Below, in pieces: positions 9,577 through 64,000 of a stretch of DNA of 64,000 nucleotides. Each line of letters opens with the position of its first letter. Positions within the stretch are counted from its first letter, which is position 1. Location: positions 15,469 through 79,468 of the forward strand of contig ONCC01000012.1 of the NCBI GenBank assembly GCA_900316235.1. The letters are read 5' to 3'. The notes beneath the pieces are model-generated. The model searched no databases. It was not told the origin of the DNA and worked only from the letters and a program-made list of their open reading frames with translations. The DNA is from an uncultured Bacteroidales bacterium (lineage in GTDB: Bacteria > Bacteroidota > Bacteroidia > Bacteroidales > P3). A program made the translations under genes and the position numbers.

Positions 9577-10317
9577 ATGATAACCCTCGACCATATCACC
9601 GTCAGCTTTGGCCAGCGCTGCATCCTCGACAATATTAGTGCCGGGATTGCAGAGGGGCGCATCACGGCGGTGATGGGGCCCAACGGCTGCGGCAAGACCA
9701 CCTTGTTGCGCTGCATCGGCGGCCTGCTGGAACCCACGGGAGGTCAGGTGCTGATTGATGGCCGACGGGTGAAAGACTTTTCCGCAAGGACCTTGGCCCA
9801 GAAGGTGGCTTTTGTGCGCCAGCAAGCGCAGACCGACTTCGAATTCTCGGCCTTCGAGACGGTCCTCATGGGTCGCAACCCTTACCAACGACGTCTGCAG
9901 AACGAGTCGCAGGCCGACTGGGACATCGTGGAACAGTGCATGCGGCAGACCGGCACCTGGCACCTGCGCATGTCCAAACCCCACGAGATGAGCGGCGGCG
10001 AACTGCAGCGAGTGATGATTGCCCGCGCACTGGCCCAACAAACGCCGGTGCTGCTAATGGACGAGCCGGTGAGCAACCTCGACATCGCACACCAGCTGGA
10101 GATCATGCGGTTGCTGAGAAATACCGACAAGAGCGTGGTCATCGTCATCCACGACTTGAACCTCGCTCTCCAGTTCTGTGACGACCTCCTGCTGTTCCAT
10201 GAAGGGAAATTGCTCTACAACGGTCCCATGGCTGGCGGTCTCACGCCGGAGAACATCCGCACTGTCTATGGCGTAGAAACCCATACGACCGAGGGACGTA
10301 TTATCTTCAACTACTGA
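9577..10317 (+). CDS. ABC transporter ATP-binding protein (FecE/BtuD-like)
   Basis: Walker A GPNGCGKTT, signature MSGGELQRV, Walker B LLMDEPVSNLD. 246 aa. Confidence 0.9.
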   Translation: MITLDHITVSFGQRCILDNISAGIAEGRITAVMGPNGCGKTTLLRCIGGLLEPTGGQVLIDGRRVKDFSARTLAQKVAFVRQQAQTDFEFSAFETVLMGRNPYQRRLQNESQADWDIVEQCMRQTGTWHLRMSKPHEMSGGELQRVMIARALAQQTPVLLMDEPVSNLDIAHQLEIMRLLRNTDKSVVIVIHDLNLALQFCDDLLLFHEGKLLYNGPMAGGLTPENIRTVYGVETHTTEGRIIFNY

Positions 10318-15196: not shown

Positions 15197-15217
15197 GCAA
15201 AGATGGCCACCATTTTA

Positions 15218-15248
15218 ACCGCGCATGATATCCATGTGCGGTTTTTTG
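15218..15248 (+). terminator. intrinsic terminator after dut
   Basis: ACCGCGCATG-ATATC-CATGTGCGGT (10 bp including one G-U pair) followed by TTTTTTG. Confidence 0.7.
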
Positions 15249-15268
15249 TTAAAGTTTGTACCCCCGAT

Positions 15269-15301
15269 GTAAGATTATCGGCATAATATGAGTATTATAT
15301 T
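15269..15301 (+). promoter_or_regulatory. conserved bipartite motif GTAAGATT-N16-TATTATATT upstream of sigma paralog 1
   Basis: The same two boxes with an identical 16-nt spacer occur at 39431-39463 and 63477-63509, each directly upstream of a paralogous sigma gene. Confidence 0.6.
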
Positions 15302-15304
15302 GGT

Positions 15305-15823
15305 ATGACGCACAGAAACGACATACAAGACACCGCCGCAGACTTTGAAATCATGCTGCACCGTCGACAGACTGACCTTTGGCGACTCTGTCTGCGTCAG
15401 GCTTGGGGCAACACCGAGCAGGCCCGTGACCTGATGCAGGAGTCGATACTGGCGTTGCTCCGCGTCGATGCACGTCGGCGTCACGATGTAACCGATGCCG
15501 AGGAGCGCTCGTGGGTGCTGCTGGTGGCACGCACGGCCATCAGCAACCTCCGACGGAAACACCGTGTGGAGACGGTACCCCTTGACGAAAGCTGGGCACT
15601 GCCTGCTGAAGACAACGACGACAAAGCCCGCGAACTGCTCGACGAGATGCGTGTCCATTTGTCGGAGGCCGACCAACAGCTATTGCAGCTCTATCGCGAC
15701 GGCTTCGCCGTAAAAGACATTGCCGTGATACTTTCCATCACTGCCGATGCCGCCAGCGTGCGACTCCATCGACTCACCGAACGGCTGCGCACAATATATA
15801 ATGACAACTATAAATCCAGATAG
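15305..15823 (+). CDS. sigma-70 family (ECF-type, regions 2 and 4) RNA polymerase sigma factor, paralog 1
   Basis: 172 aa. Region-2-like DLWRLCLRQA...LMQESILALL...SWVLLVARTAISNLRR. Region-4 HTH LLQLYRDGFAVKDIAVILSITADAASVRLHRL. Confidence 0.8.
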   Translation: MTHRNDIQDTAADFEIMLHRRQTDLWRLCLRQAWGNTEQARDLMQESILALLRVDARRRHDVTDAEERSWVLLVARTAISNLRRKHRVETVPLDESWALPAEDNDDKARELLDEMRVHLSEADQQLLQLYRDGFAVKDIAVILSITADAASVRLHRLTERLRTIYNDNYKSR

Positions 15824-15825
15824 CC

Positions 15826-16104
15826 ATGAAATTCGAAGACATTGAACATTACATGCACGAGGAGCACCTGCGAAACGAGGCCGCAAAGTTCACCGCTGAC
15901 CTGATGCACTCGCAAGAGGCTCGTCGGGCCTTGCACCGTGCCCGGCTGCAGCGGGCCGTGGCGGCCTGCTTCCTGCTAGGCGTGATTACCCTGACATCCT
16001 TGGCTTTCATGCCTGCACCCCGTTACGACTATGCCTATGGCACCCACGCCGAAGCAGCCTCATCAGTATGTGACAGTGTCCAACAAATATATTCCATGCT
16101 ATGA
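15826..16104 (+). CDS. small single-TM protein (anti-sigma-like topology), hypothetical
   Basis: 92 aa. Basic N-part (RRALHRARLQR), one TM helix (AVAACFLLGVITLTSLAF), ~30 aa tail. 2-nt gap after the sigma gene and ATGA overlap with the next gene. Positional counterpart at 39961. Confidence 0.5.
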   Translation: MKFEDIEHYMHEEHLRNEAAKFTADLMHSQEARRALHRARLQRAVAACFLLGVITLTSLAFMPAPRYDYAYGTHAEAASSVCDSVQQIYSML

Positions 16105-16601
16105 AACACGCTATCTCTGTCTTGTTGTTTTTAGCAATGCTGTGCGTTGGCGGTGTGGCGACGGTTAGGTATTGGCCCCGTCTCTTCCCGTCGGACGAGA
16201 CCAGCGTCCTCTTCCGCCGCTACGAAAATGCTGATGGCATTGAGGCCGACTTCGTGCGCCGCATGCGTTTCGACAACGGCCAGCGCATCGACATCACCCT
16301 GCTCCACGCCACCGATAGTGTAGCATGGGACAAACTGAAATGCGATCTGAATATCCAGGAACAGCCTGTCGAGGCATTGCGACGTCTGGGAGTCGAGCCT
16401 GCCGACATTCACCTGCGCTATTCCACCCGCCAACACCCCGAGCGGGCCATCACCATCGTCGACTTCGATGTCTACGACTGTGTGGCCGTATGCTACAGTC
16501 GCCGCCTGGTATGTGTGTTCCATATCGATACCAAGGAGCAGATGGAAACCATGTTCTCCGAGGTGGCAAACAACCATATGAATCAAGTTTTCAATCATTA
16601 A
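16101..16601 (+). CDS. N-terminally anchored protein of unassigned family (paralog of 40227..40700)
   Basis: 166 aa. One TM helix, then shared blocks VLFRRYENADGIEADF...RIDITLLHATDSVAWDKL...VCVFHIDTKEQ, versus EVFLRYRDADGVRVAF...RTDVTLLKAQDSVTWAGL...VGVFHVETLAQQ in the paralog. Confidence 0.55.
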   Translation: MKHAISVLLFLAMLCVGGVATVRYWPRLFPSDETSVLFRRYENADGIEADFVRRMRFDNGQRIDITLLHATDSVAWDKLKCDLNIQEQPVEALRRLGVEPADIHLRYSTRQHPERAITIVDFDVYDCVAVCYSRRLVCVFHIDTKEQMETMFSEVANNHMNQVFNH

Positions 16602-16614
16602 ATACTTAACATCA

Positions 16615-17088
16615 ATGAAACAAATTGTCAAAATGCTGCTTCTCGCAGCCATGCTGTTCCCCCTCGGCTGCACAGCCGAAACCACCGAAGGTAAACCTAG
16701 CGGCAAGAGCGCCCTGGTGGGCACCGAATGGGTCTATCACTATGAAGGTAACGACACTATTATGGACCAGGTTTTCACTAATGTGGGAGATTACATACTG
16801 CAGTTCCTCACCGACAGCACAGGTCTCTATTTAGTGGATACTTACGTCATCATCAATGGTGTCTCGCAGAACAGCAATAACCAGATGGGCATAAAATACA
16901 CTTTTGACGGTCACAGCGGCGTCATCAAATACATCTTCCCCGAGGGAACACCTTCCTATGTGCGCGCCAGCATGCCGCCACAGAAATTCGTCTACGATGC
17001 CAAGAAGCAGGAACTCATCTGGGTAAACTTACTTGACCCCACATGGGAGAAAAAGCACGGCAAGATGATTTTCCGCCCCAAAAAGTAA
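16615..17088 (+). CDS. hypothetical lipoprotein
   Basis: 157 aa with lipobox LFPLGC; no recognisable domain. Confidence 0.5.
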   Translation: MKQIVKMLLLAAMLFPLGCTAETTEGKPSGKSALVGTEWVYHYEGNDTIMDQVFTNVGDYILQFLTDSTGLYLVDTYVIINGVSQNSNNQMGIKYTFDGHSGVIKYIFPEGTPSYVRASMPPQKFVYDAKKQELIWVNLLDPTWEKKHGKMIFRPKK

Positions 17089-17130: not shown

Positions 17131-18231
17131 ATGAAACGCACAACGCTCATATTGCTGGTTTTGTTTGCTGCGATGTCCCTCATCTCCTGCCACGCCCAAT
17201 TGACTACCGAGAGAGACTATGTGCCCCTGCGGACGGGCGCCGAGATGTTGATGGAGCAGCAACTGCCGAAGGGACATGTTGCCGTAGTGGGCAACCAGAC
17301 ATCGGTCATCGGTGGCACTCACATTGTGGACACGCTGATAGCACGTGATGTGCAGGTGGTGAAGATATTCTGTCCCGAGCACGGCTTCCGTGGCACCGCC
17401 GCTGCTGGTGCCCATGTCGACAACAGCGTCGATCCTAAGACTGGCCTCCCCATCATCTCGCTCTATGGGAAAAACAAGAAGCCCACGAAGGAGCAGCTAA
17501 AGGATGTGGACTGTGTGATCTTCGACCTTCAGGATGTGGGCTGCCGCTTTTACACTTATATCAGCACGCTACACTATGTGATGGAAGCCTGCGCAGAGAG
17601 CAATATTCCACTTATTGTCATCGACCGACCCAACCCTAATGGGTATTATGTCGATGGTCCGGTGCTCGACACTGCTAAATATTGCTCTTTTGTCGGTATG
17701 CACCCTGTGCCTGTCGTTTACGGCATGACCATTGGAGAATATGCCGAGATGATTAACGGTGAGCATTGGCTGAAGGGAGGTATCAAATGCGACCTCACGG
17801 TTGTCTCTATGGAGGGCTACAAGCGCGACTCGGTGGGCTACGAGCTTCCTGTGCCACCGTCACCCAACCTGCGTAACGCCCACGCCATTGCCCTCTATCC
17901 TAGCCTCTGCCTCTTCGAGGGTACCAACTGCGGTGTAGGACGCGACACCGACTATCCCTTCGAGTGGGTCACTTATGGGAAAGACACCCTCGACTTGCGG
18001 CAGGAACCCGCCCCCGATTCCTTCAGCCTCAAGTACTTGACGTCCATGTATAAGCGGGTGCCAAAAGGAAAATTCTTTCTCAAGAACAATTTCTTCGAAA
18101 AACTCGCTGGCAATGGGGAGTTGCGCCGTCAGATAGAGGCCGGCATGAGCGAGAAAGACATCCGCGCCACTTGGCAGCCCGCGCTCAGGGAATTCATGAA
18201 AATCCGTGAAAAATACTTAATTTATAAATAA
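17131..18231 (+). CDS. DUF1343 family protein (YbbC/NamZ-like exo-beta-N-acetylmuramidase family)
   Basis: 366 aa, signal peptide or lipobox. VAVVGNQTSVI, FCPEHGFRG and DLQDVGCRFYTYISTL are typical DUF1343 blocks. Confidence 0.75.
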   Translation: MKRTTLILLVLFAAMSLISCHAQLTTERDYVPLRTGAEMLMEQQLPKGHVAVVGNQTSVIGGTHIVDTLIARDVQVVKIFCPEHGFRGTAAAGAHVDNSVDPKTGLPIISLYGKNKKPTKEQLKDVDCVIFDLQDVGCRFYTYISTLHYVMEACAESNIPLIVIDRPNPNGYYVDGPVLDTAKYCSFVGMHPVPVVYGMTIGEYAEMINGEHWLKGGIKCDLTVVSMEGYKRDSVGYELPVPPSPNLRNAHAIALYPSLCLFEGTNCGVGRDTDYPFEWVTYGKDTLDLRQEPAPDSFSLKYLTSMYKRVPKGKFFLKNNFFEKLAGNGELRRQIEAGMSEKDIRATWQPALREFMKIREKYLIYK

Positions 18232-39190: not shown

Positions 39191-39430
39191 TACCCTGCGT
39201 CTACCGCAGCCCTGACATCCCTGCCGGCGGAGGTGAAATTTCTGTTAAAATTGGGTTGAAATGTTAAACTTTCTTAAAATTTCAGGGCAGAAATGTATTT
39301 TCAGGGCACTTTTTGCTTTATATACGGTGATGAACAGCTCTGCAGGAAGCTCGAGCAGCTTGTCGGACGGCATTGCGCCTACGCGCTGGGGCCAAAAGTG
39401 TGTTAAAAAAAGTTAAAACGAGTGTATCTT

Positions 39431-39463
39431 GTAAGATTCGGGGTAAAAAAAGTCTATTATATT
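39431..39463 (+). promoter_or_regulatory. conserved bipartite motif GTAAGATT-N16-TATTATATT upstream of sigma paralog 2
   Basis: Identical boxes and spacing to 15269-15301; ATG is 21 nt downstream. Confidence 0.6.
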
Positions 39464-39484: not shown

Positions 39485-39964
39485 ATGACCGAGGAATCAA
39501 AATACACATCCCTTCTGCGCCGCCACCGGAAACTTGTCTGGAGGCTGTGCCTGAGATATGCGAGGTACGACAGTGACCGCTGTGTCGACATGGTGCAGGA
39601 GGTCAGTATCGCACTATGGGAACGCTTCGGTCGTCTGCGAGCCAATGCGAGCACGCTTGAAGAGAAAGCCTGGGTGTATTGGAACACACGCGATATCCTC
39701 GGCAGGATGCAGCATCAACGACGGTTTGACACGGTTCCAATCAACGAATGGATGGAAGACACCCTTGCCGATGAGCGCGACGGGGGCAATGACTGTCTAG
39801 AGGACTTGCTTTCCAGACTGACTGAAGAGGACAGGACATTGGTAAAACAATGGCTCGACGGCTATAAGGCTGAAGAGATAGGGGAAATGACGGGGATGAC
39901 TCGCAACAATGTATACCAAAGAATGTTTCGCATCATACAGAAATTAAAAAAAATAAATCCATGA
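39485..39964 (+). CDS. sigma-70 family (ECF-type) RNA polymerase sigma factor, paralog 2
   Basis: 159 aa with LVWRLCLRYA, MVQEVSIALWERF and EEKAWVYWNTRDILGRM. Region-4 HTH EEIGEMTGMTRNNVYQRMFRI. Confidence 0.8.
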   Translation: MTEESKYTSLLRRHRKLVWRLCLRYARYDSDRCVDMVQEVSIALWERFGRLRANASTLEEKAWVYWNTRDILGRMQHQRRFDTVPINEWMEDTLADERDGGNDCLEDLLSRLTEEDRTLVKQWLDGYKAEEIGEMTGMTRNNVYQRMFRIIQKLKKINP

Positions 39965-40230
39965 AAAACAAAAAAACAGAACTCATGGATCGCCTGCTGG
40001 GTTTCGACAGTAGGGAGTTCAAAAGACAGATGGTTGAGGGACTCGACGAGTGGATTGGCCGTCGCAAGGAGGCTTCTCTCACGCGGCGTCTCTGTGTGCC
40101 AGTGCTATGCGCCACACTGCTGATGGTGACGGTGACTTATCTTGCGACGCCCGTTCTCAACTATCGCCTCGGCGACGGCATGTCCTACGAGACGGTGACG
40201 GAAAAGACTGACAATCTGATTTCATTATGA
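39961..40230 (+). CDS. small single-TM protein (anti-sigma-like topology), hypothetical
   Basis: 89 aa. Basic segment GRRKEASLTRR, TM helix LCVPVLCATLLMVTVTYLA, short tail. ATGA overlaps on both sides. Confidence 0.5.
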   Translation: MKNKKTELMDRLLGFDSREFKRQMVEGLDEWIGRRKEASLTRRLCVPVLCATLLMVTVTYLATPVLNYRLGDGMSYETVTEKTDNLISL

Positions 40231-40700
40231 AGAAAAGGCACTACATAGCCCTGTCTATCGTCCTTGCTGGTCTTGCAGTCTGTTTGTGGATAGCTCTCCA
40301 TCCACGGCAGTTGCCCTATGACCAGTGTAGCGAGGTGTTCCTTCGCTATAGGGATGCTGATGGTGTCAGGGTAGCCTTTCTTAAAGATTTTCCGGTTGAC
40401 GACTCGGTGAGGACGGATGTCACTCTGCTTAAGGCGCAGGACTCGGTCACATGGGCCGGGCTGATTGTGGCACTCTGCCACAACGGGAACATCAACGACT
40501 TCCTTCCGGGGAAAGTGTTCTTCAAACCTGTTCCAAAAGATGATTCCCGCTCGACGAATCAAGAGGAGTCCATAAACGAATATATCATTGTCGCTTACCG
40601 TCCAGACCTTACCGTCGGCGTGTTCCATGTGGAGACTCTCGCACAGCAAAAGTCAATCATTGACAAATACATTAATTCATTAATAACAAAAAACATATAA
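40227..40700 (+). CDS. N-terminally anchored protein of unassigned family (paralog of 16101..16601)
   Basis: 157 aa. See the shared blocks listed for 16101..16601. Confidence 0.55.
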   Translation: MKKRHYIALSIVLAGLAVCLWIALHPRQLPYDQCSEVFLRYRDADGVRVAFLKDFPVDDSVRTDVTLLKAQDSVTWAGLIVALCHNGNINDFLPGKVFFKPVPKDDSRSTNQEESINEYIIVAYRPDLTVGVFHVETLAQQKSIIDKYINSLITKNI

Positions 40701-40702
40701 TT

Positions 40703-41683
40703 ATGAAAAAGTTTCTTTTGTTGCTGGCTTTGCTGCCGGCGCTGACGGGATGGTCGCAAGACACCGTTTCGAATCCCTACGGTCGGGGATATTTCACCAA
40801 CAACATTCCCGATACGACCTCGTCCGCCTACTCCGTCGGTTGGGTTCCAACTTGCGGTGCCTCATGCGGGGTTGTGGCCAAGGAGATGTCGACCTCGCAG
40901 ACATTGAGGATATACGGCATTGCGGCCTGCATGATGTCCGATAGGGATGCGCTATATCTTCCGGAATCCCTCAGCGAAGAAGAACGACAGGAGTGGCTTG
41001 ATAATTTTTATTCAAATTTTATCGACACCTCGGCAGATGAACTGTACGAATATCTGGGTATATACCTGAGTGACGGCGACACCGCACTGGTGCCCCAGCG
41101 AGAGGTAATGATACAATGGGGGGTCGACACTCCGGCCTACTATGTCGCAACGGGGCTGTATATGTGGGGAGGGCCTAATACCACGTACCCCATGTATGAG
41201 AAGTTTTTCGACTCCGGCTACGTGGCCGTCTCGGATTATTTCTATGTGGGAGTGACGCAGCGTTCCTGCGTTGGAACCTTTGGAACGCAAGCCCACATGG
41301 GATTGAGTTTGATGCGAATGAGTGGCAGAGCGTGCGAAAAAAGCCCGGAGTACCACGTCAAAAAGATGTGCTGGCCTGAAGATGGCTATGTGTACTGGAA
41401 CTGGGACCCGCGGGTGTCAATGATTACCTACGACCACTACCTGATTTTCCCGATCCTGGCTCCCGACGACTATCCTTGGGACACCTCGGGGGTGGGCGGC
41501 GACACACTGGCGGTGACGCAGGCCGACATGGTGGCACGTTATACCTCGGTGCAGCCTAATCCCGCCACGGAACAGGCCCGTGTGCTGTCGAGTTTCGGGC
41601 TGTCCCACATCGAGGCTTACAACGCCGGCGGGCAGAAGGTCTACCCCGCGGTACCTACCTCCTCCGCATCACCACCCCCTTAG
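40703..41683 (+). CDS. secreted protein whose T9SS C-terminal sorting domain is interrupted; the last CTD strands are encoded in another frame up to 41715 (possible pseudogene or sequencing error)
   Basis: Signal peptide ends GWS-Q. The CTD begins VQPNPATEQARVLSSFGLSHIEAYNAGGQKVY, then reads PAVPTSSASPPP*. Frame 1 from 41650 reads GTYLLRITTPLGTVTKKLLVQ*. Confidence 0.6.
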   Translation: MKKFLLLLALLPALTGWSQDTVSNPYGRGYFTNNIPDTTSSAYSVGWVPTCGASCGVVAKEMSTSQTLRIYGIAACMMSDRDALYLPESLSEEERQEWLDNFYSNFIDTSADELYEYLGIYLSDGDTALVPQREVMIQWGVDTPAYYVATGLYMWGGPNTTYPMYEKFFDSGYVAVSDYFYVGVTQRSCVGTFGTQAHMGLSLMRMSGRACEKSPEYHVKKMCWPEDGYVYWNWDPRVSMITYDHYLIFPILAPDDYPWDTSGVGGDTLAVTQADMVARYTSVQPNPATEQARVLSSFGLSHIEAYNAGGQKVYPAVPTSSASPPP

Positions 41684-41734
41684 GCACGGTGACAAAGAAA
41701 CTGCTGGTGCAGTGAAGCTTTAGAGGTATAAAAC

Positions 41735-41773
41735 AAAAGGAGCGCCACCCGTGATGGGTGGCGCTCCTTTTGT
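41735..41773 (+). terminator. intrinsic terminator after sigma cassette 2
   Basis: AGGAGCGCCACCC-GTGA-TGGGTGGCGCTCCT followed by TTTGTT. Confidence 0.75.
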
Positions 41774-41850
41774 TGGTGACCCTGCTGCGATTCGAACGCA
41801 GGACCTACTGCTTAGAAGGCAGTTGCTCTATCCAGCTGAGCTACGGGGCC
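41774..41850 (-). tRNA. tRNA-Arg (anticodon TCT), CCA encoded
   Basis: Reverse complement GGCCCCGTAGCTCAGCTGGATAGAGCAACTGCCTTCTAAGCAGTAGGTCCTGCGTTCGAATCGCAGCAGGGTCACCA forms a cloverleaf with loop CTTCTAA. One C-A mismatch at acceptor pair 6-67. Confidence 0.85.
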
Positions 41851-62286: not shown

Positions 62287-63402
62287 ATGATTACCGTTCG
62301 CCCCGTCAAAGGTCGCCGCGACCTTAAGAAATTCATCGCTTTCCCCAACAAGCTTTTCAAGGATGTGCCTACTTACATCCCCGCTTTGAATTTCGACGAG
62401 GTGAACCTGCTTACCGACAAGAATCCTTCGTTGGAGCATTGCTCGCGCGAGCTTTACCTGGCTGAGCGCGACGGCAAGATTGTGGGCCGTGTGGCAGCAA
62501 TCATCAACCGCAGCATCAACGATCACTGGAACAAGAAGGCTGTGCGTTTCGGTTGGTTCGACTTCATCGAGGATTACGATGTATTCACCGCGCTGCTCGA
62601 CAAGGTCATTGAATACGGCAAGGCCAATGGTATGACCGAGATTGAGGGTCCTTTCGGTTTCACCGACATGGACAAAGAGTGCTGGGTTATTGACAACTTC
62701 GACGCCCGCCAGAATATCTCCACCCTCTATAATCCCGAGTACTACATACGCTTCATCGAGCGTGCCGGCTACGAAATCAAGTGTAAGTGGCAGCAGTATA
62801 GCATGCCGGCCAATCAGCCGGTGCCCGACAAGGTGGGTCGCCTCAACAAGCTCATCATGGAGAAGTACCACCTGCGCCTCGTCCGCGTGAAGCACCGCAA
62901 GGAACTCATCCCCTACGCTTGGCAGTTTTTCCACGCCATCAACGAGAGTTTTGCCGACCTTTACGACTTCGTCCCCATGACAGAGAAGGAGATAGAAGTG
63001 TATATCAAGGAGTACTTCCCCTTTGTCAATATGGACTTCGTGCAGTTTGTGGTCGACGAGAACGATAAGCTTGTCGGCTTTGGCCTCTCCATCCCCGACC
63101 TCAACGGCGCCTACAAGAAAGCCAAAGGGCACCTCTTCCCCTTCGGATGGTATCATATCCTCAAGGCATTCCGCCACTTCGACACCATTGACCTCCTCCT
63201 CAACGGAGTCCTCCCCGAATGGCAGAAACGCGGTGTACACAGCATCTACTACTGCGACATGAACGAGGCCGCCATCCGCTACGATGTCCACACCGCCTAC
63301 ACCAACCCCCAAATCATTGGCAACGAGGCCGTCAAAATCTGGGAGACGCAGTACAACACCACGCCCCTGATGCAGCGCGCCGTCTTCGGCAAGAGCCTAT
63401 AA
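62287..63402 (+). CDS. GNAT/FemAB-like (BioF2-like) acyltransferase-fold protein, function unassigned
   Basis: 371 aa, starting 2 nt after the preceding stop codon. The pattern LAERDGKIVGRVAAII...FGWFDFIED...GMTEIEGPFGFTDMD resembles the two-lobed GNAT-like proteins often found beside BioF-like genes. Confidence 0.5.
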   Translation: MITVRPVKGRRDLKKFIAFPNKLFKDVPTYIPALNFDEVNLLTDKNPSLEHCSRELYLAERDGKIVGRVAAIINRSINDHWNKKAVRFGWFDFIEDYDVFTALLDKVIEYGKANGMTEIEGPFGFTDMDKECWVIDNFDARQNISTLYNPEYYIRFIERAGYEIKCKWQQYSMPANQPVPDKVGRLNKLIMEKYHLRLVRVKHRKELIPYAWQFFHAINESFADLYDFVPMTEKEIEVYIKEYFPFVNMDFVQFVVDENDKLVGFGLSIPDLNGAYKKAKGHLFPFGWYHILKAFRHFDTIDLLLNGVLPEWQKRGVHSIYYCDMNEAAIRYDVHTAYTNPQIIGNEAVKIWETQYNTTPLMQRAVFGKSL

Positions 63403-63428
63403 TAAAAGAATTACATTATTAATATAAG

Positions 63429-63456
63429 GAGCCAATCGTCAAGGTTGGCTCTTTTT
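63429..63456 (+). terminator. intrinsic terminator
   Basis: GAGCCAA-TCGTCAAGG-TTGGCTC followed by TTTTTG. Confidence 0.7.
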
Positions 63457-63476
63457 GTAAAAAAATATGTCTTAAT

Positions 63477-63509
63477 GTCAGATTTTGGCTAAAAAGAGGG
63501 TATTATATT
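63477..63509 (+). promoter_or_regulatory. conserved bipartite motif GTCAGATT-N16-TATTATATT upstream of sigma paralog 3
   Basis: Same geometry as 15269-15301 and 39431-39463; ATG is 5 nt downstream. Confidence 0.6.
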
Positions 63510-63514
63510 GGTAG

Positions 63515-64000
63515 ATGGACCGACAAAGTAGATACACCGAATTGTTGAAGCGTCACCTCCCGATGGTGTGGCGTGGGTGCTGGGTACGGGCGAGGGGCAA
63601 CTACGAGCGCTGCCGCGACCTGGTGCAGGAGGTCTCCATCGCCCTCTGGCTGCATCTCGACCAGCTGCGCACGGACGTCTCTCCCAAAGAGGAGAAGGCA
63701 TGGGTGTGGTGGATGACACGTACCACTCTCGACCACCTGCACCGCAGTCAGCAACTTCCCCTGCAGGCACTGACGGAAGCGATAGCCGAGACCATCCCCG
63801 ATGCCGACAATAGCGCCGTGGAGGAGGATATCGAAGAACTGATGGCAGCCCTCAGCCCTGAGGAGCAACAGTTGGTGCGGCTGCACATTGAAGGCTACCG
63901 TGCCGACGAGATAGCGGAGACCCTGGGCCTCGGGCGCGATACCGTCTATCAGCGCATGCACCGCGCCCTGGGGAAGGCCCGCAAGGTGTTGCTGGTATTG
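63515..64000 (+). CDS. sigma-70 family (ECF-type) sigma factor, paralog 3; 3' end outside the window
   Basis: Not in the ORF track because no stop codon is reached. Frame 2 from ATG 63515 reads MDRQSRYTELLKRHLPMVWRGCWVRA...LVQEVSIALWLHL...EEKAWVWWMTRTTLDHL...EIAETLGLGRDTVYQRMHRALGKARK. Confidence 0.75.
   Translation, partial: MDRQSRYTELLKRHLPMVWRGCWVRARGNYERCRDLVQEVSIALWLHLDQLRTDVSPKEEKAWVWWMTRTTLDHLHRSQQLPLQALTEAIAETIPDADNSAVEEDIEELMAALSPEEQQLVRLHIEGYRADEIAETLGLGRDTVYQRMHRALGKARKVLLVL

Follow-up and report, generated by a model that had tools for sequence, protein, structure and literature searches.

Extracytoplasmic function (ECF) sigma factors average 22.5 per genome in the Bacteroidota (PMC7826278), and the types described in this phylum include the FecR/SusC-linked systems (ECF240-type) and the Dma/Das systems with their dual-membrane anti-sigma factor (PMC10927553, PMC9308784). 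The present work examines a gene cassette that occurs twice in a stretch of 64,000 nucleotides (nt) from an uncultured Bacteroidales bacterium (assembly GCA_900316235.1, contig ONCC01000012.1, positions 15,469 to 79,468 of the forward strand), which is hereafter called the window. Each cassette encodes, in this order, an ECF sigma factor, a small single-pass membrane protein, a larger protein termed D, predicted to be held by an N-terminal helix with its domain in the periplasm, and a fourth protein that varies. We propose that the cassette is probably an autoregulated three-component ECF envelope switch, composed of the sigma factor, a mini anti-sigma factor and an N-anchored periplasmic partner.

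With the described Bacteroidota types the cassettes share the phylum, the multi-copy nature of the ECF paralogues and an output at the envelope or surface, yet they possess neither a FecR domain, nor a TonB-dependent transporter, nor a β-barrel anti-sigma factor, and their candidate anti-sigma factor is only about 90-100 amino acids (aa) long. FecR (PF04773) was found in none of the cassette proteins, and no TonB-dependent receptor appears in the listed neighbourhoods. Class I anti-sigma factors, for their part, are defined by an N-terminal anti-sigma domain of about 80 aa, often with an HxxxCxxC zinc motif, whereas the cytoplasmic part of the small protein comprises only about 49 aa.

Closer parallels in organization are found in other phyla. 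In the nickel/cobalt system of Cupriavidus metallidurans, in function the nearest to the proposed switch, the ECF sigma factor CnrH is combined with a transmembrane anti-sigma factor, CnrY, and a membrane-anchored periplasmic sensor, CnrX, and is under the joint control of the two (PMC6851896). The window cassettes match this system in architecture and topology, exhibiting likewise a sigma factor, a small transmembrane protein and a separate N-anchored periplasmic protein, and its autoregulated operon has its counterpart in the autoregulation that we propose for the cassettes from their promoter motif. CnrY is a class II anti-sigma factor of about 95 aa, CnrX is an all-helical dimer that senses metal through a His/Glu site, and structures of both should be contained in the PDB, yet no sequence similarity came to light, as PDB profile searches gave 0 hits for D and noise only for the small protein. 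The differences extend further: D is modelled as an α/β protein whereas CnrX is helical, D lacks a conserved His/Glu metal site, the genes run in the order sigma-small-D as against cnrYXH, and no metal-efflux genes lie near the cassettes, which belong to another phylum, the Bacteroidota.

A second parallel is SigY of Bacillus subtilis (ECF31), which requires both YxlC and YxlD (PMC7826278). There too the sigma gene is followed by an anti-sigma gene at position +1 and by a second protein at +2, both of them conserved across the SigY group; the proteins differ from those of the cassette, stem from another phylum and have no Pfam family in common with them, a comparison made by family and not by the YxlC/YxlD sequences. 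In the RseA/RseB pair (MucA/MucB; σE/AlgU), the anti-sigma factor spans the membrane once, and a partner protein that attaches to its periplasmic part gates its proteolysis, a role that is plausible for D as well. RseB, however, is a soluble protein of about 300 aa and RseA combines a class I anti-sigma domain with a large periplasmic domain, whereas the tail of the small protein has only about 30 aa and D is membrane-anchored; neither a sequence nor a fold match was found.

An earlier interpretation of the window, made from its letters without database searches (the sequence-only reading), had set the cassette apart from the FecR/SusC and RsiW/ChrR types. This distinction stands, as no FecR, ZAS or RskA was detected, but the cassette is not without precedent in view of CnrYXH, SigY-YxlC-YxlD and RseA/RseB. 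It is a non-homologous variant of a known three-component ECF logic, and not a new class. No concept is thereby overturned, three-component ECF systems being already known: the protein families are new and the logic is old.

Two cassettes of near-invariant gene order

A scan for open reading frames (ORFs) returned the eight cassette ORFs at the positions first reported for them, and reproduced their sizes, their gaps of 2-13 nt and their ATGA overlaps; all window features described here lie on the + strand. Cassette 1 comprises the genes for the sigma factor (15305..15823), the small protein (15826..16104), D (16101..16601) and a probable lipoprotein (16615..17088), where 2 nt separate the first two genes, the second and third overlap by an ATGA, and 13 nt lie between the third and the fourth. 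Cassette 2 comprises the corresponding genes for the sigma factor (39485..39964), the small protein (39961..40230) and D (40227..40700), followed by a gene for a putative secreted protein of the type IX secretion (T9SS) cargo type (40703..41715); here the small gene overlaps each of its neighbours by an ATGA, and 2 nt separate the D gene from the fourth. Both cassettes begin just 3' of the terminator of the upstream gene, which in cassette 1 is the intrinsic terminator of dut (15217..15243; an 11-bp stem and then a T-run), and cassette 2 finishes at an intrinsic terminator of its own (41739..41774), read from the sequence as GGAGCGCCACCC-GTGAT-GGGTGGCGCTCC followed by TTTTGTT. The G+C content of the cassettes (0.52-0.54) equals that of the window (0.53) and thus gives no compositional sign of foreign DNA. 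At NCBI, the window's own cassette proteins are recorded as MBQ6741065-68, from a Bacteroidales metagenome-assembled genome (MAG).

The cassette sigma factors are ECF sigma factors: in keeping with ECF group 4, they consist of σ2 and σ4 only, in 172 aa (copy 1) and 159 aa (copy 2), and match the ECF profile. All three sigma factors of the window, including one whose gene starts shortly before the window end, match TIGR02937, Sigma70_r2 and Sigma70_r4_2. Their TIGR02937 scores are 42.9 bits for the divergent copy 1 (exactly at the cut-off), 69.4 bits for copy 2 and 71.6 bits for the third; the Sigma70_r2 and r4_2 matches lie above the cut-offs for copy 2 and are weak for copy 1, which scores 196 bits against a profile of its clade. 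The sequence-only reading had taken the three for paralogues of about 160-170 aa with the common blocks VQEVSIALW and EEKAWV(Y/W)W. Their paralogy is borne out by identities of 27% between copies 1 and 2 (E value, E, 2e-22) and 41% between copy 2 and the third (E 2e-42), but the third turned out to have 380 aa, and the blocks are present in copy 2 and the third and absent from copy 1. The corresponding group in the ECF Hub may already be catalogued as uncharacterised.

The linkage of the genes was followed in a census that combined 11 contig look-ups with exact proteins, a genome scan and a metagenome scan, yielding 90 distinct D sequences, 63 of which had at least 1 kb of upstream sequence. 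A sigma factor of the same clade stands upstream of D, on the same strand, in 62 of these 63 distinct loci, whereby the linkage noticed in the window holds far outside this genome and passes the comparative check that the sequence-only reading had suggested. Nearly all census loci have an ORF with a transmembrane (TM) segment between sigma and D, usually of 89-111 aa and with one TM helix, and the junction of the small gene with D is typically a 4-nt overlap in the relatives. Gene order and coupling are near-invariant. Metagenomes and MAGs from the rumen and the gut supplied the loci (RUG and UBA MAGs; "Bacteroidales bacterium"), and a narrower scan of a genome collection found only five loci, in rumen MAGs.

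This census bears directly on the explanation that the repetition within the window reflects chance or annotation, with spurious small ORFs, or else a recent segmental duplication. A pairwise comparison of the two window small proteins (92 and 89 aa), which detected no similarity between them, speaks for an artefact. Yet a small ORF of the same topology is kept in 47 distinct versions, the exact window proteins were found on 100-176 contigs, and the paralogues, at 27-29% identity, are ancient and not the product of recent duplication. The explanation is effectively refuted by the census and retains a negligible probability.

Two complete cassettes also occur in tandem on one contig (L078, 1336-1788 and 2998-3462), which confirms that members of the family typically occur in several copies. 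At locus L013 (1499-2830), and likewise at L019 and L023, another ECF module of three genes lies directly upstream of the cassette; it encodes a sigma factor with a PhyR_sigma-like match, a protein of 111 aa and a periplasmic LTXXQ/Metal_resist protein.

The small membrane protein and the D family

The small protein of copy 1 (92 aa, hydrophobic peak at residue 45) exhibits a basic N-part of about 44 aa, a TM helix and a tail of about 30 aa, and the same plan recurs among the 47 distinct small proteins, with a median length of 98 aa, in which the N-part accounts for 49 aa and the tail for 30 aa (range 26-42). Within the 15 aa flanking the TM helix, Lys and Arg together average 5.1 before the helix and 0.96 after it, and the bias is found in 45 of the 47 proteins; the N-part is thus predicted by the positive-inside rule to be cytoplasmic and the tail to be periplasmic, and composition statistics show this predicted topology for the family. 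The tail follows a loose pattern, in which a Pro near the membrane is succeeded by some 10 extended residues and a short amphipathic helix ending in ...(L/I)L...

The relationship among the small proteins is less readily established. Copy 2 (89 aa) is 60% identical to its L001 orthologue, and copy 1, left out when a profile was built from 11 orthologous small proteins of other loci, scores 19.2 bits against it, a score that was reached by 3 of 2000 shuffles in which the compositions of N-part, TM helix and tail were kept. Given the 19-bit score, the shuffles and the lack of pairwise similarity, the homology is likely but weak, and it may be said with moderate confidence that the small proteins appear to form one fast-evolving family. 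Pfam and NCBIfam searches with the window small proteins matched no FecR, ZAS or other family, Pfam searches with 12 small proteins matched no class I anti-sigma model (zf-HC2, RskA), and the alignment contains no H/C zinc motif; assignment to a known anti-sigma family was accordingly rejected. The anti-sigma-like topology without ZAS or FecR that had been noted for these proteins of about 90 aa is therefore upheld, and by position and topology the small protein is a candidate anti-sigma factor, for which binding to σ2/σ4 of the sigma factor would be expected. In one sub-clade its place is taken by a protein of 190-235 aa with 2-3 TM segments and a similar C-terminal periplasmic tail, as observed at L012 (3261-3950) and also at L044, L045, L053, L074 and L095.

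The D proteins of the two cassettes (166 and 157 aa) are clearly related, at 29% identity (BLASTP, E 2e-15), copy 1 scoring 155 bits against the D profile. The sequence-only reading had described them as paralogues belonging to no named family, and on both points the wider searches agree. An exhaustive search with a hidden Markov model identified 623 clusters at 50% identity with E <=1e-3, of which 456 have E <=1e-10; nearly all are of 155-170 aa, and where the source names them they are called "hypothetical protein". Pfam gave a consistent match in 0 of 135 D members, and NCBIfam, PADLOC and PHROGs gave none. An AlphaFold2 model of D copy 2, built with 135 sequences, has a predicted local distance difference test score of 88.3 and a predicted template modelling score of 0.77. 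It places the TM helix at residues 3-24; a short second helix (36-41) comes next, followed by a β-hairpin (strands 47-56 and 62-70), a helix at 73-84, strands at 97-103, 117-124 and 129-134, and a long C-terminal helix at 138-156, in all an α/β arrangement with five β-strands. Two Foldseek searches of the PDB returned nothing significant (best E 0.066, template modelling score <=0.3), and a resemblance to PH domains was dismissed as weak noise (E >=0.04-0.07, template modelling score <=0.3). As modelled, D represents a new, well-folded and unnamed family.

The best-conserved positions of D are Y41, D59, T66, A70, W76 and L79 in copy-2 numbering. Its alignment shows no conserved Cys or His pairs and no invariant His or Glu, and no ligand-binding or catalytic motif could be recognised in it. 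Across the family, 2-3 basic residues precede a TM helix that starts at about residue 6, and D is hence predicted to be a signal-anchored protein with a periplasmic domain. It follows that D cannot touch the sigma factor directly, and that any effect of D on it would have to pass through a membrane partner.

This raises the alternative that the small protein alone is the anti-sigma factor, and that D and the later genes are outputs, D being an envelope-maintenance or assembly factor co-transcribed as the first member of the regulon. ECF operons often encode products of their regulon further downstream, D is followed by genes for variable surface or secreted proteins, D lacks any recognisable motif of the kinds just named, and one D gene (L055, 1965-2447) stands directly after nadC with neither a sigma nor a small gene. 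But this orphan, the sole exception in 63, is also the only case in which D was seen away from the sigma clade; in the 62 remaining loci D is linked to sigma, usually with a 4-nt overlap with the small gene, whereas the genes after D change freely. A recurrent allele of 223 aa is also at variance with a mere output, as it joins the TM helix and domain of D to a basic cytoplasmic N-part in the place of the small gene. On balance, the alternative is an unlikely one, though it deserves more weight than the other two rivals of the switch, and a three-component switch in which D takes part in the control of the sigma factor is preferred.

The 223-aa fusion lies directly after the sigma gene and consists of a basic N-part of 56 aa, a TM helix and D; no separate small gene accompanies it, and it is represented by at least 11 sequence variants. 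Variable columns are no more frequent in the N-part (7 of 56) than in the remainder (26 of 167). The fusion suggestively resembles a conventional one-piece anti-sigma factor that has D as its sensor domain. A second fusion, of 290 aa, joins D to a C-terminal domain like the copy-1 lipoprotein (P0145; 23 cluster members). Such fusions within the cassette count as suggestive and not as decisive.

A common promoter motif and a membrane-tethered sigma factor

The aligned regions upstream of the sigma genes contain the motif TGT[ACT]A[GC]ATT-N16-TATTATAT. In its bipartite form TGTNAGATT-N16-TATTATAT, it has exactly 3 matches in the 64 kb of the window with <=2 mismatches, compared to 0.05 expected, and each match lies just upstream of a sigma gene. 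The predicted ECF-type promoters of the two cassettes both read TGTAAGATT-N16-TATTATAT; that of cassette 1 (15268..15300; 39 bits with a position weight matrix, PWM) ends 4 nt before the ATG, and that of cassette 2 (39430..39462; PWM 41 bits) 22 nt before the start codon. The match before the third sigma gene, TGTCAGATT-N16-TATTATAT (63476..63508; PWM 48 bits), ends 6 nt before the start codon, so that copies 1 and 3 may be near-leaderless. Nothing besides these three sites exceeded 12 bits in a PWM scan of the window, and further regulon members within it were accordingly discarded. The motif is exclusive to sigma loci. Among relatives, it is present at >=13/16 in 31 of 66 sigma-upstream regions, compared to 36 of 2000 random windows.

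The -35 element of the motif is ECF-like, while the -10 element is TATTATAT in close relatives, and not CGT; CGTA is found in distant members. More distant members carry TGTTAC(A/T)TT-N16/17-TATTATAT or TGTTACTTT-N17-TAACGTAT, the latter being the textbook ECF -35/-10 pair of σW/σX/σE-type promoters. These features suggest that the operons are read by ECF sigma factors of the same clade, and the promoter of each may be read by its cognate sigma factor. In most sigma-upstream regions a further element, GTTAAA(AA)/TGTAAAAA, is located 10-25 nt upstream of the -35, in some cases in two copies; it is seen in the window at 15248-15253, 39402-39417 and 63456-63463, as well as at many related loci; it could be an UP-like element or the binding site of a second regulator.

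The third sigma gene belongs to a different arrangement. Only its 5' part falls within the window (63515..64000), and it was completed on the metagenome contig L030, which is identical to the window over 62287-64000 and runs past its end. There it encodes a protein of 380 aa (L030, 7229-8371), in which σ2/σ4 (residues 1-159) is followed by a TM helix at about 157-177, a Pro-rich linker and a β-rich C-terminal extracytoplasmic region without a Pfam match; the resemblance of this last part to a T9SS C-terminal domain was a visual impression that Pfam did not support, and it was dropped. Neither a small gene nor a D gene is present at this locus on L030, where a search with the D profile found nothing, and the locus was rejected as a third cassette once the sequence had been extended. 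Of the three module loci previously counted in the 64 kb, only two are full cassettes: the window contains two cassettes and the start of a sister architecture, whose sigma factor is a membrane-tethered, non-cassette paralogue. Downstream (3') of the 380-aa sigma gene are encoded a 602-aa BspA-type leucine-rich repeat protein (LRR_5), a lipocalin_4-like lipoprotein and, at a distance of 2.4 kb, a second fused sigma factor of 321 aa (L030, 10794-11759). The fused type comprises at least 120 clusters at 90% identity, of 300-390 aa, and its members are unnamed or called "sigma-70 family".

The near-identity of the promoters within one genome gives rise to another explanation, whereby no sequestration takes place, one master regulator (a paralogue or another factor) reads the common TGTNAGATT-N16-TATTATAT, and control of the sigma factor involves neither the small protein nor D, which would simply be envelope proteins. 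ECF paralogues are normally insulated from one another by promoter divergence, and one motif for sigma factors of 27-41% identity thus suggests a cascade or regulation across the paralogues. On L030 the motif occurs a fourth time (10270-10302), ahead of the genes for the lipocalin-like protein and the second fused sigma factor, and the conserved GTTAAA(AA) element could bind another regulator. Across species, however, the motif drifts together with the divergence of the sigma factors, from TGTNAGATT to TGTTACTTT or TGTTACATT and then to a CGTA-type -10, as is expected for cognate recognition, and the small protein has the size, topology and position of a membrane anti-sigma factor. A master regulator without sequestration is therefore considered improbable, though more likely than an artefact or a recent duplication.

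A proposed envelope switch and its outputs

In the switch that we favour, the basic cytoplasmic segment of the small protein, of about 45-50 aa, would serve as a minimal anti-sigma factor and probably hold the sigma factor inactive, while its tail of about 30 aa would project into the periplasm. D, anchored by its N-terminal helix, would expose a compact α/β domain on the same side and may pair with the tail or the TM helix of the mini anti-sigma factor, acting either as a sensor or as a guard of the anti-sigma factor against proteolysis. An envelope cue, relayed perhaps by the co-encoded lipoprotein or secreted protein, could alter this pairing, upon which the anti-sigma factor would release the sigma factor or be degraded. 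The free sigma factor may then transcribe its own operon from TGTNAGATT-N16-TATTATAT, which would raise the expression of the cassette together with that of the downstream lipoprotein or T9SS-cargo gene.

Several observations weigh against this proposal. Neither Pfam nor a PDB profile linked the small protein's cytoplasmic part to any known anti-sigma domain. Three sigma factors of only 27-41% identity stand behind near-identical promoter motifs, and a common motif fits cross-talk or one master sigma factor at least as well as strict self-regulation. The D gene at L055 does without both partners. The fused and unfused alleles, moreover, are mosaics, and the N-extension of the 223-aa fusion, tried as the N-terminus of a small protein, was rejected with a profile score of about 0. 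When the fused allele at L024 (4001-4672; 223 aa) is compared to the unfused arrangement at L065 (2700-3500; a 95-aa small protein and a 167-aa D), the N-terminal halves of D are 96% identical in DNA, whereas the sigma factors and the C-terminal halves of D show no relationship, a sign of recombination inside the cassette; derivation of the fused allele by simple deletion was rejected, as the loci share only 174 nt at 96% identity. The binding of the small protein to the sigma factor, that of D to the small protein, the nature of the signal and the reading of the promoter by the cognate sigma factor are inferred. The sequence-only reading had proposed a dedicated envelope signalling unit; the genomic context, with its linkage in 62 of 63 loci, supports this part well, and the protein contacts within such a unit are putative.

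The genes after D are likely outputs or partners of the switch, and they are diverse. No homology was found between the fourth genes of cassettes 1 and 2, and a common origin for them was rejected. The copy-1 lipoprotein (157 aa, signal sequence ...LFPLGC) has no Pfam or PDB match, and is related to the C-terminal domain of P0145 by BLASTP (E 3.5e-8). The commonest gene directly after D, found in 37 of 65 loci, codes for a conserved lipoprotein of about 134 aa (...SCQKE lipobox), which is absent from both window cassettes and matches nothing in Pfam, PADLOC or PHROGs; examples were observed at L001 (1247-1651), L015 (4537-4947) and L025 (4517-4921). In 10 of the 65 loci, D is followed by a homologue of the T9SS-type protein of copy 2. 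A secreted fourth gene had been counted as part of the module from the start: the two window products are a probable lipoprotein and, judging by its intact relatives, a putative T9SS cargo, and the status of the fourth gene as a fixed component is not supported, in view of the lipoprotein of about 134 aa in 37 of 65 loci.

The T9SS-type gene of cassette 2 is frameshifted in its C-terminal sorting domain by an out-of-frame internal deletion (41640-41715). The ORF (326 aa) stops at 41683, and the end of the domain continues in another frame to 41715, where it reads ...LPRGTYLLRITTPLGTVTKKLLVQ before a stop; about 16 residues of its relatives (EGKAEGLEATLDVKGW) are missing. One contig alone is on record with the 326-aa form, and the gene represents a pseudogene specific to the strain or else an error of assembly. 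Intact relatives have 353-365 aa and a Por_Secre_tail domain (E 5e-7), and PF18962, the corresponding model, is matched by the intact 365-aa cluster member P0368 and by the homologue at L026 (6366-7409); the lack of such a match in the window ORF is due to the frameshift. Downstream of cassette 1, 43 nt past its end, the window contains a gene (17131-18231) for a NamZ-type exo-β-N-acetylmuramidase lipoprotein, of the kind involved in peptidoglycan recycling. Its co-transcription with cassette 1 is possible, because no terminator lies between them.

A more far-reaching view, which we advance tentatively and to which we give a little less than even weight, is that the small protein and D constitute an undescribed split anti-sigma factor, made up of a sigma-binding module of about 50 aa and a new periplasmic sensor fold. 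It would be specific to uncultured Bacteroidales of the herbivore gut, with several paralogues in each genome that would each tune the expression of another surface lipoprotein or T9SS-secreted protein, and the sister clade of sigma factors, tethered by a C-terminal TM helix of their own and bearing an extracytoplasmic domain, would be its one-polypeptide version.

Envelope signalling in the Bacteroidota depends chiefly on ECF sigma factors, and few types other than those linked to SusC have known inputs. What is new here, from sequence alone, is a compact module, a periplasmic domain family of >600 clusters at 50% identity, a candidate minimal anti-sigma factor and a sharp promoter motif. A reporter and three small genes provide a handle on what uncultured Bacteroidales of the rumen and gut sense, and the module as a whole a handle on how Bacteroidales switch their surface lipoproteins and T9SS cargo. 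The mini anti-sigma factor and the short promoter could, in addition, serve as an orthogonal genetic switch for the engineering of Bacteroidales.

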